From: Vulcanimicrobiales bacterium
GTDB lineage: Bacteria; Vulcanimicrobiota; Vulcanimicrobiia; Vulcanimicrobiales; Vulcanimicrobiaceae
Reading direction: 5' to 3'
Assembly (NCBI GenBank): GCA_038231455.1
Contig: JBBRLI010000013.1
Location: 27,147-91,146, forward strand
Length of the DNA: 64,000 bases
The notes beneath the pieces were generated by a model. The model made no database searches. It had not been told where the DNA came from and saw nothing but the letters and a program-made list of their open reading frames with translations. This document shows positions 1,821-58,297 of the stretch, piece by piece. Within the stretch, counting starts at the first letter, position 1, and the number at the start of each line of letters is the position of its first letter. Both the position numbers and the translations under genes were made by a program.

Positions 1821-2660
1821 ATGATCGCCCCGTGCACGCCCTGGACCCCATCGCTCTTGCCGGCAAGCGCCGAGCAGTGGCCGCTCGTCGCGCGGCGCGG
1901 TAACGAATCGACGCTCGTGCACGTCGGTGATGCCGTCTTTGGGGCGGAGGATTTCGTCGTGATCGGCGGGCCGTGTTCGGTCGAATCGCCTGCGCAGATC
2001 GACGCTGCCGCGGCGGCCGTCGCGCGCTCCGGCGGCAAGCTGCTCCGTGGCGGCGCGTTCAAGCCGCGCACCAATCCGTACGCGTTCCAGGGGCTGGGTT
2101 GGGATGGGGTCGATCTGCTCGCGGCCGCCGGACGCCGTTACGGGCTACCGGTGGTGAGTGAAGTGATGTCGATCGACCAAGTCGATCGCATGGCAGAATC
2201 CATCGACGTGCTGCAAGTTGGGGCGCGCAATATGCAAAACTTCGATCTCTTACGTGCCGTCGGCCGTTCGCATCGACCGGTCTTACTCAAACGCGGCATG
2301 AGTGCGACGCTCGACGAACTGCTCTGCGCTGCAGAATACATCGTCAACGAAGGCAACAAGAATGTGATCTTGTGCGAGCGTGGGATTCGCACGTTCGAAA
2401 CCTCGACGCGCAATACGCTCGATCTCGGCGCAATCGTCGTGCTCCGCGAACGCACGCACTTGCCGATCATCGTCGATCCCTCGCACGCGGTAGGTGTACG
2501 GCGTTGGATTCCACCGCTCTGTCGCGCGGCGCAAGCCGTCGGCGCGCATGGCTTGATGATTGAAGTGCATCCCGAACCGTGCGAGGCGCTCTGCGACCGC
2601 GACCAAGCCCTCGACCTTGAGGACTTCGCCGCGGTCATGGCATCGCTTAAGCGGGGCTGA
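1821..2660 (+). CDS. aroF: 3-deoxy-7-phosphoheptulonate (DAHP) synthase, type I-beta, catalytic domain only
   Basis: [41 protein letters not shown] and EVHP motifs. Confidence 0.92.
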
Positions 2661-3963
2661 GCTCGCGGCGAAAGGATTCCGTCGCTGCGAAGGCTTGCGC
2701 GAGATCGGCGATGAGATCGTCCGCATCTTCGATGCCAACCGAGAGTCGTACGAGATCGGGCGTGACGCCGGCCTCGATTTGTTCGACGACCGTAAGCTGT
2801 TGGTGCGTCGTCGTCGATGGGTGGATCGCAAGCGACTTTGCATCGCCGACGTTCGCGAGCAGAGAGAACAGCTTGAGTGCATCGATGAACGCCTTGGCCG
2901 CGGCAGCGCCGCCTTTCACGCCGAACGTAAGGATCGCGCCCTGCCCTTTGGGCAAGTACTTCTTGGCAAGCGGATGAGCGCGATCACCTTCGAGTCCCGG
3001 ATACTGCACCCACACGACCTCGCCGCGGCCTTGTAAGAACGTTGCGACGCGCAGCGCGTTTGTCGAGTGGCGCTCGACGCGTAAGCCGAGCGTCTCGAGG
3101 CCCTGAAGAAGAAGCCAGCCGTTGAACGGTGAGAGCGAGGATCCCAAGTCTCGCAGCAACTGGACCCGTGCTTTGACGATGAATGCCATGTTCCCGAACG
3201 AGGCTACGTAGCGAACGCCATGATACGACGGATCGGGGTCGGTGAGTTCGGGGAATTTTCCCGATGCGGCCCAATCGAAGTTGCCGCCGTCGACGATGAC
3301 GCCGCCGATTGTCGTTCCGTGTCCGCCGATAAATTTCGTCGCCGAGTGGGTGACGACGTTTGCGCCGTGTTTGATCGGATTGCTCAGATACGGCGTCGCA
3401 AGCGTGTTATCGACGATGAGCGGGATCTTCGCTTCGTGGGCGATAGCGGCCACCGCTTCGATGTCGAGTACGTCGACTTTCGGATTGCCGATGGTCTCTG
3501 CAAAAATCGCCTTCGTATTGGGTTTGATCGCGTTTTTGAAATTCGCGAGCTTACCCGGGTCGACGAGCGTCACCTCGATGCCGAATTTTGGCAGCGTGTG
3601 GACGAAGGCGGAGTGCGTCCCGCCGTACAGCGATGCGGAGCTTACGATGTGATCGCCTGCGCGGGCGATGTTGAGAATCGCGAAGATGTTCGCCGCTTGT
3701 CCTGAGGCGACGGCAAGTGCACCAACGCCGCCTTCGAGGACGGCGAGCCGCTGTTCGAGCACGTCGTTTGTGGGGTTCATGATACGCGTGTAGATGTTGC
3801 CGAACTCTTGGAGTCCGAAGAGACGCTCCGCGTGCGCGGTATCATCGAAGGTGTAGGACGTCGTTTGATAGATTGGAACGGCCCGGGCCTTCGTCGTTGG
3901 GTCGCCGCTATGACCCGCGTGAATTGCTGCGGTATCGAACTTGTACGCGTGCTCGTCGGACAT
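2647..3963 (-). CDS. metY: O-acetylhomoserine aminocarboxypropyltransferase (sulfhydrylase)
   Basis: [32 protein letters not shown] (PLP lysine), [14 protein letters not shown]. Confidence 0.93.
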
Positions 3964-4001
3964 CGGTGTTCCTCGCTTGTGAGTGGCGAAAGATGGAGTG
4001 G

Positions 4002-4041
4002 AAAGAAGAAGCCCCGCAGCCGGTGTCCGGTGCGGGGCTTC
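4002..4041 (-). terminator. Intrinsic attenuator terminator upstream of metY
   Basis: Minus strand gaagccccgca...tgcggggcttc stem followed by ttcttt. Confidence 0.75.
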
Positions 4042-4066
4042 GTTTATTCGGTTGCTGCGGTTGCTG

Positions 4067-4144
4067 CTAGCCGACGAAAACCCGACACCGGTCCATAATG
4101 GTGGTGCTCGTGCAGGTCATCGTCGTCATCCAGGCGGCGTTCAT
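4067..4144 (-). CDS. Met/Thr/Cys-rich leader peptide [25 protein letters not shown] (25 aa)
   Basis: 4 Met, 6 Thr, 2 Cys, 1 Ile; its 3' part (4074-4091) is complementary to the terminator arm (4027-4043). Confidence 0.8.
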
Positions 4145-4150
4145 GTGAGC

Positions 4151-5242
4151 CTAGGAGTAACACGGGACGAGTCGCCCTGTCAAGGCATCGGTGAACGCGC
4201 GTGAGGAAAGCGAGGGTTCACCGGGGCCGACTAAATCCGCCGTACGGGCGCCGGCCGCGTAGGTGGCTCGAACGGCTTCCTCGATCGCGCGCGCGTTTGC
4301 CTCATCGCCGAGGCTGAAGCGCAAGAGCAGGGCGGCGGAGAGGATCGCTGCGGTGGGATTGGCGATCCCGAGGCCCGCGATATCGGGTGCCGTGCCGGCG
4401 ATCGGCTCGTAGAGGCCGAATTTGCCACCGGACGCGGCACGCGTGCCGACGCTCGCGCTCGGCGCCGTTCCGATCGATCCGCCAAGTGCTGCGGCCTCAT
4501 CGGAGAGAATGTCGCCGAACATATTTTCCATCACGAGCACATCGAAGCGGCCGGGGTCGCGCACCAACTGCATCGCGGCGTTATCGACGAGCAGATGATC
4601 GAAGGCCACATCCGGATAGTCGGCCGCAACGCGAATGGCCGTCTTACGCCACAGTTGCGAGTTGACCAAGACGTTCACTTTGTCGACGGAGGTCAACCGT
4701 TTGGAACGCGTTCGTGCAAGCTCGAATGCGAAGCGCACAACACGCTCGATATCGGGCGCACGGTAACTCATCGTCTCGCACGCACACTCGACTCCATCGA
4801 TCGTCTCGATCGTTTTCTCACCGAAGTACAGTCCGCCGGTCAGTTCGCGGACGATGATGAGGTCGAGCTGACTTGCCAGATCCGCGCGCAGCGGCGAGCG
4901 CGATTCGAGCCCGGCGAACATCGTCGCCGGGCGCACGTTTGCGTAGAGGTCGAAGTGTTTGCGTAAAGTGAGCAGCGCGTACTCGGGTCGCTGCTGCGGC
5001 GATGCGCCGTCGAACTGTGTGCCACCGACAGCACCGAAGAGAATTGCATCTGCCCGCTCGCAGCCCGCAAGCGTCGCATCCGGCAGTGAGGTTCCGTGCG
5101 CGGCAACCGCCGCGGCACCGACAGCAAATTCTTCAAAGGCGAGATCCGGCCGCACCAGCGCGAGCACGCGCTGCGCGCAGGCCGTGACTTCGGGACCGAT
5201 CCCATCTCCTGGGAGAACGGCGATCATCGCGCGTGCTGCCAC
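4151..5242 (-). CDS. leuB: 3-isopropylmalate dehydrogenase
   Basis: [43 protein letters not shown]; alternative ATG at 5227 overlaps the leuD stop. Confidence 0.93.
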
Positions 5243-53983: not shown

Positions 53984-55252
53984 TTAATCGTGATTGGAGG
54001 CGGCGACCATCGCGACCGGCGGGATATTGCCGTCGCGATCGAACGCGAACGCATCGATGCGATCTTCGACCGAGTAGCGCTCGATGTTTTCGAGATCGGC
54101 AATCGCGCGCTCCGATGCAACGAGCGTGTCCATATGCAAGGTGTTCGCAATCCGCACGATGCGCGCTTCACGCGGATCGTCGATGCCGGCGGCGACGAGG
54201 GCATATTCGATCGCTTCACGATCGCTTGCGCACACGACCGGGAGCCGCGCGCAGGCGGGCTGTGCTGCAGTCAGGACGTTCAAATATGTCGTCGGCCAAT
54301 CGATCGAATCGGCAAGCGTTTTGGTGCAGAAGTCCGCAAGGCCGATGCCGTTGGCATTGCCATCGGAGTGCAGGCTGAGTTTGCGAACGAAGAGCTGATC
54401 GATCAGCGGGCTTGGAGATTTTTGACTTCGCCCGTCGACGGCGCGGCCGGTCACGTTGGTGTCCATGCCGGTGCCCGAGTAATTTTTGCCCATCTCATCG
54501 ACGACGAGCAGATCGAGATTTGCAAACGGTAAACGCGAGAGCAGTTCGCGCGCGTGCGCGAGTAAGCGCTCTTCCTCGCGCACGAGGGCACCTGGCGGGA
54601 TACCTTCGAGGGTATTGGTATTTCCGCGATGATCTTCGACAATCGCAAGGCCGGCAACGATCGGGAGTTTGTCGAGCTTCAGGGCGGAGACTTCACGGAT
54701 GATCGACTCATAGTCGTATTTAGCAAACGCGGCGTGATAGCGTTTCGCACCCACGGCTTTCCCAAGACCGATCGCGAGCATTTTGAGCAGCCCGCTCTCG
54801 ATCGTGCCGCTAAAATCTGTGTGCGGCTTCACGCGTCCGACAACGACGATCGCATCGGCAGCGGCCGCAGCCCGATCGGTGCATACGGCGACGCCGTGCG
54901 CCGTCGTGCCGAGTTCGATCACGTCCATCTCGGTTGAGATCGGCGCACCGACGCTCGTTTCCGTGATCCCCAGATGACCGAGAATCTCGCGTTGGCCGTC
55001 TGCTGTGCCGCCGCCGTGCGAGCCCATCGCCGCAACGATGAATGGATCGCCGCCCGCCGCGCGTACGGCGATTACGGCTCCCGCGAGAATCTCGCTGATA
55101 TTGGAGATCCCGCGGCTGCCCGCAGTGATCGCGACACGTTTTCCACGGAGTCCGCGAAGGACCGGCGCGAGCGCGGCGGTTGCCGCATGGCGTGGGTTGC
55201 TGATCGCTTCGATCCAGCGCGTGTCTCGTACGATGCGAAAATCCGAAAACAT
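53984..55252 (-). CDS. LarA-like/DUF2088 lactate-racemase-domain protein
   Basis: [46 protein letters not shown]. Confidence 0.75.
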
Positions 55253-55333
55253 GCAAGGAGAACTTGCATTCCGCGCCCACAATCCCTCGGCGCATTGCCA
55301 AGGGCTGAGCCTTTCGCGCGCGAACAGGCGCGC

Positions 55334-57025
55334 ATGAGCTACGATCCCAAGGCCCGCAGTGCCGTTATCACGGAGGGCCGCGATCGCGCGGCGGCGCGTG
55401 CGATGTACAAAGCCATCGGTTTCACCGATGATGACTTGCGTAAGCCGATCATTGGGATTGCGAACACGTGGATTGGTACCATGCCGTGCGGATACAATCT
55501 GCGCGGCCTCGCCGAGTTCGTTAAGCAAGGGATTCGCGAAGCCGGCGGCACGCCGATGGAATTCAACACCATCGCCATTAGCGATGGCATCACGATGGGC
55601 ACGGAGGGCATGAAAGCCTCGCTCGTCAGTCGTGAAGTCATTGCGGATTCGATCGAACTTGCCGGTCGCGGGTACATGTTCGATGCGATCGTAGCCCTTG
55701 TTGCCTGCGATAAAACCGGTCCGGGAGCGGCGATGGCGCTCTTGCGCTTGGATGTCCCCTCGCTGATTCTGTACGGCGGCACGATTCTGCCCGGGAAAAA
55801 TCCCGAGGGGATCGACATCACCGTTGGCGATGTTTTCGAGGCGATCGGCGCACATGCGGCCGGGAAGATCGACGATGCGCGCTTGAAGTATATCGAAGAT
55901 CATGCGTGCCCCGGCGCCGGTGCCTGCGGCGGCCAATTCACCGCCAACACGATGGCGACGGTGCTGGAGTTCATCGGCCTCTCGCCGATCGGCAGCGCCT
56001 CACCCGCAGCCACCGATCCGCGCAAAGAAGAACAGGGCGTTCGCGCCGGGCATCTCGTGATGGATCTCTTGCGAGGCGGAATCACCCCGCGTCAACTCTG
56101 CACCCGCGACGCGTTCGAAAACGCGATTGCGGCGGCGGCGGGCACCGGCGGCTCGACCAACAGCGTCTTGCATTTGCTCGCGATGGCGCGCGAAGCGGAC
56201 GTGCCGCTCACGATCGATGACTTCGATACCATCTCATCGCGCACGCCGATTATCGCCGACCTGCGTCCGGGCGGGAAGTACACCGCCGTCGACGTCGATC
56301 GCGCGGGCGGCATTCAACTCATTGCGAAGCGCATGGCGGAAGCCGGACTCATTCATACCGGAGCCCTCTCCTCATCGGGACGCACGATCGGCGAAGAGGT
56401 TGCTAGCGCCGTTGAGACGCCCGGACAAGTCGTCGTCTCGACCGCCGACAAACCGTTCAAAGCGACCGGCGGGCTCGTTATTCTGCGCGGCGACGTCGCT
56501 CCCGATGGTGCGGTCGTGAAAGTCGCGGGCCACGAGCGCTCGCATCACCGAGGCCCGGCGCGCGTATTCGATCGCGAAGAAGATGCGATGACGGCAATCG
56601 ACGCGCGTAAGATCGTCGCGGGCGATGTGGTGGTGATTCGCTACGAAGGACCCCGCGGCGGTCCGGGGATGCGCGAGATGCTCGGCGTGACCGGCGCGAT
56701 TGTCGGTCAAGGCCTTGGTGAATCCGTTGCGCTCATTACCGACGGGCGCTTCAGCGGCGCGACGCGCGGACTCATGATCGGGCATATCGCACCGGAAGCG
56801 GCGCTCGGCGGCCCGATCGGTTCGCTACGCGACGGCGACATCATCACGATCGACATCGATAATCGACGCATCGATGTCGACGTGCCTGCCGCAGAACTCG
56901 CAAAGCGGCGCGCCGCGTGGACGGCGCCGCCGCCCAACTATCGCACCGGTGTTTTTGCAAAATACGCCGCGCTCGTCTCATCGGCATCCGAGGGCGCGAT
57001 CACTCGCGCGATCGGCATCGAGTAA
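55334..57025 (+). CDS. ilvD: Dihydroxy-acid dehydratase
   Basis: [47 protein letters not shown]. Confidence 0.94.
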
Positions 57026-57031
57026 CCGCCC

Positions 57032-58297
57032 GTGGAACTCCGCTGCAGTGACTGCGGGCGCGCTGCCGAACTTTCTCAGATTGCATGTGCGGTCTGCGGC
57101 GGTCTGCTCGCCTTCCAACTCGGTGCTATCGACGAGGATGCGACGACGATCCGCGCACGCTTGCGCGAGCGTCGCGCCTCAAACGCGCACATCGATCAAA
57201 GCGGCGTCTGGCGCTATCGCGAACTCCTACCGGAAATTCCGCAGAGCGCGATCGTCACGTTGCGCGAAAATATGGCCCCGCTCTACGACGGACCGGCGGG
57301 CGCAGCGTACGCGCAGATCCGAGCGATCACCTATCTGCACTTAGGGATGAATCCGACCGGCTCGTTCAAAGACGCGGGCATGACGCTCGCGGTGTCTCGC
57401 GCCAAAGCGACGGGAGCGCGCGCATGCATCTGTGCGAGTACCGGAAATACGGCAGCCGCGATGGCAGCGTACGGCAAGCGCGCCGGTATCGTGCCGGTCG
57501 TGCTGGTGCCGGCCAAAGGCATCAGCGAATCCAAAGTCGCGCAGACGCTCGATTACGGCGCGACGGTGATCGCGATCGATGGTGACTTCGATGCGGCGCT
57601 CGAAACGGTTCGTCGCCTCGATCCGACGCGTATCGCGATCGTCAATAGCATCAACCCCTACCGCATCGAGGGGCAGAAGACGGCGGCGTTCCAATTACTC
57701 GAAGCCCGCGATTGGCGCGTGCCGGATTGGGTGGTGTTGCCGGGCGGCAACATGGGCAATACGAGTGCCTTCGGCAAGGGCTTCCGTGAAGCGCTCGCGC
57801 TTGGTTTGATCGATCGTCTGCCGCGCCTTGCGGTCGTGCAGGCGAGAGGTGCAGCGCCATTTGCGCGCGTCGTGAACGAAGGCGGCGTGATGATCCCCGT
57901 TGTCGCGAAGACGACTGCAACGGCAATCAAGATCGGCGCTCCGGCCTCGTGGAAGAAGGCGCTCGCGGAGATTCACACCACGCGCGGCACGGCGCTTGCG
58001 GTGAGCGATGAGGAGATCGCGGATGCGAAGGCCATCGTCGGACGCGACGGCATCGGTTGCGAACCGGCATCGGCAGCATCGCTTGCGGGCCTGCGCGTGC
58101 TCCGCGAACACGGCACGATTAACGATGGCGATGACGTCGTGCTCGTGCTCACCGGCCACGTCCTCAAAGATCCGACGTACAGTGCGGAGTATCATGGGTC
58201 GGCCGCGACCTTCGCCAATCGCATCGTACGCGCGCGCGATGAAGCCGATCTGCTCGAACGCATCGATGCCGCAACCGTTGCCGCCGCACACGCGTAA
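57032..58297 (+). CDS. thrC: Threonine synthase
   Basis: N-terminal zinc ribbon, NPTGSFKD, CASTGNT, NSINPYRIEGQKT, PGGNMGN, EPAS. Confidence 0.9.
   Translation: MELRCSDCGRAAELSQIACAVCGGLLAFQLGAIDEDATTIRARLRERRASNAHIDQSGVWRYRELLPEIPQSAIVTLRENMAPLYDGPAGAAYAQIRAITYLHLGMNPTGSFKDAGMTLAVSRAKATGARACICASTGNTAAAMAAYGKRAGIVPVVLVPAKGISESKVAQTLDYGATVIAIDGDFDAALETVRRLDPTRIAIVNSINPYRIEGQKTAAFQLLEARDWRVPDWVVLPGGNMGNTSAFGKGFREALALGLIDRLPRLAVVQARGAAPFARVVNEGGVMIPVVAKTTATAIKIGAPASWKKALAEIHTTRGTALAVSDEEIADAKAIVGRDGIGCEPASAASLAGLRVLREHGTINDGDDVVLVLTGHVLKDPTYSAEYHGSAATFANRIVRARDEADLLERIDAATVAAAHA

Follow-up and report, generated by a model that had tools for sequence, protein, structure and literature searches.

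A probable leader-peptide attenuator before metY in a Vulcanimicrobiales bacterium, apparently related to threonine leaders and carrying methionine and cysteine codons

Introduction

Leader-peptide attenuation is textbook regulation for Trp, His, Phe, Leu, Thr and Ile/Val, and the footprint of a ribosome that terminates at the leader stop codon covers region 2 of the leader RNA. Methionine genes are usually described as being under the control of S-adenosylmethionine (SAM) riboswitches, T-boxes or repressors. Here we analyze a 25-codon leader open reading frame (ORF) lying between leuB and metY, the gene for O-acetylhomoserine sulfhydrylase (homocysteine synthase), in a 64,000-nucleotide stretch of DNA from a Vulcanimicrobiales bacterium of the Vulcanimicrobiaceae (GenBank assembly GCA_038231455.1, contig JBBRLI010000013.1, positions 27,147 to 91,146 of the forward strand; hereafter the window). 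The leader carries Thr, Met and Cys codons, and very probably it belongs to a real, conserved ribosome-mediated attenuator of metY. The account that we favor as a whole, to which we give a probability of about 0.7, is a trp/thr-type attenuator that gates metY, derives from a threonine leader and now responds to sulfur amino acids as well as to threonine.

The described leaders with sulfur-amino-acid codons that we found are actinobacterial. In Streptomyces lividans TK24, an RNA-seq-based prediction named metL is a leaderless short ORF (sORF) with several methionines and threonines (MSTTSDRTPATEATTTPGARCMCRRMCAF) upstream of metNIQ; according to the authors, in the accessible part of that paper, it lacks a Rho-independent terminator of the typical kind (Droste et al. 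2021, PMC8079986). Leaders of actinobacterial cys operons contain runs of Cys codons and no conserved terminator hairpin, and no RNA structures were found for the methionine operons of Actinobacteria, according to the available sections of Seliverstov et al. 2005 (PMC1262725). Polycysteine leaderless sORF attenuators are described for mycobacteria in the excerpt available of a preprint (bioRxiv 10.1101/834739), and the passages shown of Naville and Gautheret 2010 (PMC2965389) make no mention of a Met leader. Our search of full texts, beyond which supplementary files could hold such predictions, turned up no attenuator of the Met leader-peptide kind in front of a gene for Met biosynthesis. A first-pass annotation of the window, made from the sequence alone, had called this kind of control rare for a met gene; the literature searched bears this out, with one predicted leader, metL, to set beside it.

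Results

Organization and folding of the metY leader

All coordinates of the locus given below refer to the minus strand. The leader ORF (4067-4144) starts with an ATG at 4144-4142, the A of which is the seventh base past the leuB stop codon (TAG, 4153-4151), and it ends with a TAG at 4069-4067. Upstream, leuB (3-isopropylmalate dehydrogenase, 4151-5242) is assigned by its ORF and by NCBIfam TIGR00169 (418.8 bits, cut-off 353.2; residues 7-346 of 363); downstream, metY (2647-3963) is assigned by TIGR01326 (675.4 bits, cut-off 495.1) and is separated from the leader ORF by 103 nt. Internal Met codons occupy 4129-4127, 4120-4118 and 4096-4094, the codon of Cys11 lies at 4114-4112, and Thr codons stand at positions 7, 8, 10, 12, 14 and 15. 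The final ~10 codons of leuB overlap the region of a putative leader promoter, in which a -35-like hexamer TTGACA (4178-4183) is followed 18 nt later by an extended -10-like element, TGT plus TACTCC (4154-4162), 9 nt before the ATG. Both the placement of the ORF 7 nt after the leuB stop and the TTGACA within the leuB 3' end had been pointed out in the first-pass annotation, and both are as it described them. We compared three metY-linked copies of the element: that of the window genome (G000; the window lies on contig G000:C13), that of a genome from the same genus (G001) and that of a metagenome contig (L158). The TTGACA hexamer is found in G001 and L158 as well, and the leader ORF and the position of its stop codon are kept in all three.

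Four pairing regions can be placed around this ORF. Region 1 (4103-4125, codons 7-14) is predicted by folding to form the 5' strand of a 1:2 helix, visible as an inverted repeat at 4072-4082/4115-4125 (11 nt, 82%). Region 2 (4072-4091), placed by the consensus structure of 16 leaders and by folding, is the predicted partner of region 1 or, in the antiterminator, of region 3; it ends at 4072, 3 nt upstream of the leader stop codon. A 25-nt spacer separates the ORF from a G+C-rich hairpin (4041-4008). Region 3 (4027-4043), supported by inverted repeats, folding and alignment, supplies the 5' arm of this terminator, and region 4 (4008-4023; folding and alignment), with one bulged C, supplies the 3' arm. 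The two arms share a perfect inverted repeat (4008-4018/4031-4041; 11 nt, 100%) within a G+C-rich stem of 15 bp with a one-base bulge, which is followed by UUCUUCUUU; the U-rich tail UUCUUU (4002-4007), a U tract broken by a C, lies ~40 nt upstream of metY. The 2:3 pairing corresponds to inverted repeats at 4020-4031/4080-4091 (12 nt, 92%) and 4027-4040/4078-4091 (14 nt, 79%). The first-pass annotation had described it as a near-perfect inverted repeat; the pairing is present and strong as RNA, but it is near-perfect only when G-U pairs are counted.

When the segments were folded separately, the G000 helices 1:2, 2:3 and 3:4 reached -25.4, -30.9 and -30.0 kcal/mol, respectively; they are mutually exclusive and of similar strength. 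The same three options were recovered by segment folding in 16/16 aligned leaders. A 211-nt stretch folded to -77.1 kcal/mol, compared with -59.2 +/- 4.6 kcal/mol for 200 shuffled sequences (z -3.93), none of which was as stable (0/200). The locus displays the anatomy of a trp/thr-type attenuator: a short leader ORF upstream of a biosynthetic gene, three exclusive helices, a terminator with a U tract and the corresponding placement of the stop codon. Within region 1 or ahead of it stand the codons of Met6, Met9 and Cys11, in the company of six Thr codons.

Among 30,693 ATG-started sORFs of 12-45 codons in G000, 250 have at least three internal Met and a sum of Met and Cys of at least five. Only two distinct sORFs among those 250 are also accompanied by a hairpin of -25 kcal/mol or lower with a T-rich tail, and the window leader is one of them. 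The other lies on the plus strand at G000:C1:371715-371844 (MARGAHMSGQKMSGGAMGDDSMMAKKHHKKKDAMSSPAPAAT; hairpin -25.7 kcal/mol).

Homology to the poly-Thr leader of thrC

A BLAST search of 348 genomes of the family with the 187-nt leader gave matches in G047, G052, G042, G058 and G276, covering query positions 21-145 at 69-70% identity (best E 5e-7). A pattern built on region 2, with one mismatch allowed at most, was found at 25 places in 24/348 genomes, and its reversed control at 8. Thirteen of the 25 places are poly-Thr leaders of the form M..T(7-11).., each directly upstream of thrC (threonine synthase), for example MISAFVSTTTTTTTTTTTVVRCRVDVG* and MTSIRFATTTTTTTTTQIASGVGLT*. One-mismatch matches at L136-L140, L147, L148 and L152-L154 proved to be noise or to lie inside coding frames and were excluded from the alignment. 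A 19-nt region-2 string, chosen to avoid selecting on the codons in question, was used to scan metagenomes; it returned 13 stretches, of which one was a real leader (L158, before metY) and 12 were unrelated. We found no published description of the family's poly-Thr leader before thrC.

The alignment of 16 leaders (A1) has a mean column identity of 75% and 37 invariant columns. The thrC-linked poly-Thr leaders and the window element have in common their promoter geometry, region 2, antiterminator, terminator and stop-codon position, and the Thr leaders of genera g34 and g81 are read in the same frame as the window leader. In the thrC-linked leaders the promoter reads TTGAC[CAG], 17-18 nt, TGn-TAnnnT, 9-10 nt, ATG, with TTGAC[CAG] present in 13/13; the window has TTGACA, 18 nt, TGT-TACTCC, 9 nt, ATG, which matches this geometry. 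In the metY-linked copies the -10 hexamer reads TACTCC, TATCCC or TATTCG, and its final T is lost in 3/3. This promoter spacing implies, if the promoter is used, a nearly leaderless leader mRNA. With R1, a covariance model that begins at region 2 and extends to the terminator, the window reaches 69.3 bits, as expected by construction for a member of the training set.

The window element departs from the poly-Thr leaders in that metY and not thrC lies downstream, its terminator stem is ~4 bp longer and bulged, and it abuts leuB. Without interruption, G000 and G001 have at most 2 Thr in succession and L158 has at most 4, short of the five or more by which we define a regular poly-Thr run. Because the Thr run is short and metY lies downstream, we treat the window element as a derived variant of the thrC leader family and not as a regular member. 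Judged by these sequence comparisons, its homology to the family's Thr attenuator is highly probable. The first-pass annotation had proposed a methionine sensor that may also read Thr and Cys; this relationship has to be turned around, with Thr as the inherited core of a thrC-type attenuator and Met and Cys as the derived part.

Replacement of Thr codons by Met and Cys codons

Upstream of region 2, the three metY-linked leaders contain 6-8 Thr, 2-3 internal Met and 1-2 Cys codons. The 13 thrC-linked leaders contain 7-11 Thr and no Cys there, and 0-1 Met, at residue 2 or 4 only and outside the run. In alignment A1, Met6 and Met9 of G000 stand on ACG Thr codons, each a single C-to-T change away, and Ile16 (ATT) stands on ACT. 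Met or Cys accounts for 10/12 of the non-Thr residues within the three runs. A rough binomial calculation gives 3e-5 for at least 5/7 separate changes reaching Met or Cys at p = 0.07, which is a simplified estimate. The positions of Met and Cys move between copies and their number stays at ~4, which fits selection on composition rather than position. Codons 6-15 lie where a stalled ribosome, to judge from the size of its footprint, would cover region 1 and free region 2, and a shortage of Thr, Met or Cys could each cause read-through. The earlier suggestion that all three amino acids may be read is compatible with this placement. We lean toward the view that the Met and Cys codons are adaptive and that the leader reads sulfur amino acids as well as Thr.

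The most serious alternative, which we nevertheless consider unlikely, is that the element is still purely a threonine attenuator, that Met and Cys reflect neutral decay, and that metY came under the control of Thr-tRNA charging alone by an accident of rearrangement. Six to eight Thr codons do remain, about as many as the 8 of E. coli thrL, L158 keeps a run of TTTT, and the near-neutral rate of change in the codon run is what decay predicts. Moreover, metY may have been under Thr control already: in G042, G276 and G250, the Thr leader, thrC, thrB, hom, a short conserved motif in the 5' untranslated region (5'UTR), metY and metX follow one another on one strand, with the Thr leader ~3.5 kb upstream of metY. 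Against this stands the 10/12 share of Met or Cys noted above: single-step changes from ACG or ACC would lead mostly to Ala, Pro, Ser, Ile, Asn, Lys and Arg, rarely to Met and never to Cys; Cys needs two steps, yet it occupies one or two run positions in each copy. Neither Met nor Cys occurs within the run in any of the 13 thrC-linked leaders, and Met/Cys leaders precede the same gene in two other genera (see below).

Conservation of the RNA downstream of the codon run

The RNAalifold consensus of the 16 leaders is the antiterminator, with 98.8% of 240 cells paired and compensatory change at 2 pairs. One of its column pairs, 60/131, reads C-G in G000, U-G in L158 and U-A in G001. Pairing in the lower stem of the terminator is likewise 98.8%, and changes on both sides affect 3 pairs and 9 cells, a level reached by 0/500 shuffles. 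These pairing and shuffle controls keep the relatedness among the leaders and count as support, not as proof. A stronger argument comes from rates. In columns 46-157, from the last part of the codon run through region 2 and the spacer to the terminator and its tail, the three metY-linked copies differ at 7/104, 4/105 and 7/105 positions (4-7%). The fourfold sites of the same copies differ by 41%, 51% and 47% in metY and by 60% in leuB. This gap between 4-7% and 41-60% indicates purifying selection on the downstream RNA.

The constraint acts on RNA and not on peptide. In the Thr leaders of genera g4 and g71 (G234, G249, G250 and G254), a different frame (..GVGLT*) runs through the region-2 nucleotides, and region 2 is conserved all the same. 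In L158, a GntR-like fragment of ~630 nt (L158:1161-1750) with an in-frame TAG separates leuB from the leader promoter, and the element has stayed with metY. The sequence TTCACCGAT is present on both sides of this fragment, which suggests that it was inserted into the tail of leuB.

These data bear on a second alternative, in which the hairpin does no more than terminate the leuCDB operon and the sORF and its pairings are relics or products of chance. In its favor, the hairpin lies 110 nt past the leuB stop and the interval has no terminator of its own, the -10 element looks degraded, and 250 sORFs in the genome reach an equal Met/Cys composition. A plain terminator would not account for the slow change of regions 2-4 and the spacer, for the C-G, U-G, U-A series in an antiterminator helix superfluous to it, for an ORF with the same stop position in 3/3 copies, or for an element that remains with metY after an insert has parted it from leuB. 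We therefore judge this explanation improbable.

Comparison with known RNA elements

The first-pass annotation had proposed a leader-peptide attenuator of metY in place of a riboswitch or T-box. The anatomy described above fits that proposal, and an Rfam scan of positions 3600-4600 at E values up to 10 gave eight weak matches, among them no SAM riboswitch and no T-box. The best match at the locus was to Thr_leader (RF00506), with 20.7 bits and an E value of 0.34, below the gathering score of 55. SAM-I (RF00162) and SAM-IV (RF00634) had no match anywhere in G000; Rfam at gathering score gave 0 matches across 20 metY loci, and E-value scans of the loci of 10 relatives and of the 5'UTR of L004 returned nothing relevant. 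The best Thr_leader match in G000 (35 bits; C6:24266-24336, L178:1501-1571) turned out to be an ordinary bidirectional terminator that follows a Ku-like gene and was set aside as a false positive. Since a plain terminator outscores a Thr-derived leader (35 against 20.7 bits), sub-threshold Thr_leader matches are driven by the terminator.

A 5'UTR block, CTTTCGCCACTCACAAGCGAGGAA (3969-3992), read directly in the sequences, contains the metY Shine-Dalgarno (SD) sequence. All 24 nt are invariant across the three metY-linked copies, and the bases just upstream vary. The block could form a short SD-sequestering hairpin, which would amount to a second, translational control. It also favors a third alternative, namely that the locus is a metabolite- or protein-binding RNA (a SAM-type riboswitch not yet described, or a binding site) in which the ORF is incidental, as does the occurrence in other genera of short conserved metY 5'UTR motifs with no Rfam match. 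This explanation is highly improbable: no riboswitch model matches, the 1:2, 2:3 and 3:4 set that has been conserved is precisely that of an attenuator and is common to the poly-Thr leaders, and the terminator precedes the invariant block, which would constitute a separate control. That the sORF instead encodes a functional small peptide with the C-terminus DRCRVFVG is scarcely credible, even though the three metY-linked copies agree in all of the last eight residues and the Thr leaders of g34 and g81 end in a similar VRCRVDVG, given that g4 and g71 read the same region-2 nucleotides in another frame.

Leaders and gene order elsewhere in the family

The thr/met cluster found in relatives is split in G000, where hom and metX are adjacent on another contig and metY stands alone behind leuB with its leader; no leader or motif was seen between hom and metX of G000. 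In the window, metY is monocistronic and convergent with a DAHP synthase gene. Its closest named relative is from a Vulcanimicrobiota metagenome-assembled genome (78% identity), and the window genome has a second metY paralog, 54% identical, on the minus strand at G000:C29:23342-24619. Also in the window, ilvD (54974-57025), thrC (57032-58297) and thrB (to 59189) lie head to tail on the plus strand, with a gap of 6 nt between ilvD and thrC; G005 and G011 have the same ilvD-thrC arrangement and no leader. The genus of the window may have retained the element or received it by transfer.

We next considered 19 other loci with a metY at least 67% identical (L002-L020). A Met-rich sORF lies beside metY in two of them, L002 (same genus) and L008 (genus g14). 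In g14 (L008:1280-1500, G014), a near-leaderless Met/Cys leader, MSAHARMMTMAMCCFPRGSA, and a strong terminator precede the orthologous metY; the leader is kept in 4/5 further genomes searched (L174-L177), one copy having diverged. Genus g65 (L210:1400-1720, G228; L214, L215) has a Met/Cys leader, MFRLTMRMFGFMCCSQKRAARAVFA, with a terminator in 3/3 genomes. A second conserved 5'UTR hairpin motif lies between this terminator and metY in g65 and looks like tandem control. The g14 and g65 leaders share with the window leader the gene, the type of device and the presence of Met and Cys codons, but they are far richer in Met (4-6), while the window leader keeps its Thr majority. They look unrelated to it in sequence and appear to be independent parallels. 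Across 78 diverse metY loci from other phyla, an upstream Met-rich sORF was found in 9/78, against 2/78 in reverse-complement controls, 0.5 in shuffles and 0/78 inside metY.

The R1 model matched in 35/151 sampled genomes of the family; a match in G245 was left out of the analysis. Our conclusions draw on none of the unpublished genomes G009, G020, G022, G036 and G245, and the loci L003, L025 and L028 entered the listings of metY loci only. The codon run of the matched leaders corresponds to the downstream gene: Leu runs precede leuA, Leu/Val/Ile runs ilvB or ilvC, Ile runs threonine dehydratase, Cys runs a sulfate ABC transporter ATPase, Thr runs thrC, and Met/Cys runs metY. Leaderless examples with Leu, Leu/Val/Ile, Ile or Cys runs are L200, L201, L202, L205, L208, L211, L212 and L213. 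These leaders may have a common scaffold or only common terminator features, and the weaker scores may be partly generic to terminators; we make no claim that they all descend from one ancestor.

In other genera of the family, short conserved hairpins of four types overlap or abut the metY SD sequence, ~60 nt upstream of metY: a first type in L013, L011, L015, L010 and L210, a second in L004, L005 and L006, a third in L014 and L017-L019, and a fourth in L009, L012, L016 and L020. None of the four types has an Rfam match even at E values up to 1-10. They are candidates for riboregulators not described before, possibly related to SAM.

Discussion

The anatomy of the metY leader, its conservation and the shift in its codons, together with its kinship to the thrC leaders, lead us to favor a Thr-derived attenuator that probably acts as a hybrid sensor of Thr, Met and Cys. 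In the mechanism that we envisage, transcripts would arrive from the leu operon, with a possible contribution from the weakened promoter within the leuB tail. The start of the leader 6 nt past the leuB stop would make ribosome reinitiation possible. If the leader is translated smoothly, a ribosome at the TAG would mask region 2, the 3:4 terminator would form, and transcription would stop before metY. A ribosome stalled on codons 6-15 for want of a limiting aminoacyl-tRNA would sit over region 1 and let region 2 pair with region 3 as the antiterminator, and RNA polymerase would enter metY. If the leader is not translated, 1:2 and 3:4 would both form and transcription would again terminate. As to origin, the element would go back to the poly-Thr leader of thrC in other genera of the family, now placed directly before metY with its Thr run partly converted to Met and Cys; its most likely present role in vivo would be to report the supply of sulfur amino acids, still answering to threonine.

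Several observations weigh against this account. The element's own promoter may be weak or dead, considering the loss of the final -10 T in every copy and the overlap with the non-conserved coding tail of leuB in G000 and G001. A simple scan for consensus promoters and terminators made no call of either kind at the locus; where the terminator is concerned, the stem carries a one-base bulge and the U tract is interrupted. Columns 1-45, the codon run and N-terminus, differ at 7/39, 20/42 and 20/42 positions among the metY-linked copies, which is about the neutral rate. These copies form one clade (n=3), and the shift from Thr to Met and Cys is essentially the history of one lineage. In L158 a Thr stands at the place of the second internal Met, and this copy has only 2 internal Met against 8 Thr, four of them consecutive. 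Thr codons outnumber Met and Cys together in every copy, so that Thr could be the main signal, and induction of metY by Thr starvation has no obvious logic. Finally, no Thr leader was found before thrC in the window or in G005, G011, G015 and G023, the nearest genera by metY identity, and the region-2 pattern has no match in those genera.

A more far-reaching version can be offered tentatively, at somewhat less than even odds. A threonine attenuator may have been captured by a methionine gene and may now be in the course of conversion, codon by codon (ACG to AUG, and ACC to UGC via AGC), into a sulfur-amino-acid sensor, with the RNA switch frozen, such that at the homoserine branch point it would integrate Thr, Met and Cys supply; and one leaderless scaffold may have diversified across the family into sensors of Thr, Leu, Ile/Val, Cys and Met.

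With this locus, metY stands behind ribosome-read switches in three genera of a poorly studied, mostly uncultured lineage, and its homology points to the source of the sensor, a Thr attenuator with the same RNA scaffold. Because the scaffold is the same and the codons have changed, the element allows a change of attenuator specificity to be followed as successive point mutations within a short run of codons. Its main value, in our view, is that this path from one specificity to another is visible. The design is also compact, and three amino acids of the aspartate and sulfur network might be read by one 25-codon ORF. T-boxes are known for specifier-codon switching, and the window leader would be the leader-peptide counterpart.

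Set beside the known systems, the window element follows the same logic as E. coli thrL (Rfam Thr_leader RF00506), trpL, hisL, pheL, leuL and the ilv leaders: an ORF with regulatory codons, which in the window leader are putative, three helices, a terminator and a matching placement of the stop codon. It differs from these classical leaders in that it is not a sequence member of Thr_leader, its start is probably leaderless or coupled and not led by an SD sequence, the gene behind it is a methionine gene, and its codons are mixed Thr, Met and Cys. The metL of S. lividans, as far as the accessible part of its description goes, resembles it in having a Met/Cys/Thr mix before a methionine-related operon, but that operon encodes a transporter and not metY, and the two share no sequence similarity. 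With the actinobacterial Cys leaders, as presented in the sections available, it probably shares sulfur-amino-acid codons read by the ribosome, a leaderless sORF and downstream genes of sulfur metabolism. Their Cys codons are consecutive, whereas those of the window leader are single and dispersed among Thr and Met, within a full terminator and antiterminator.

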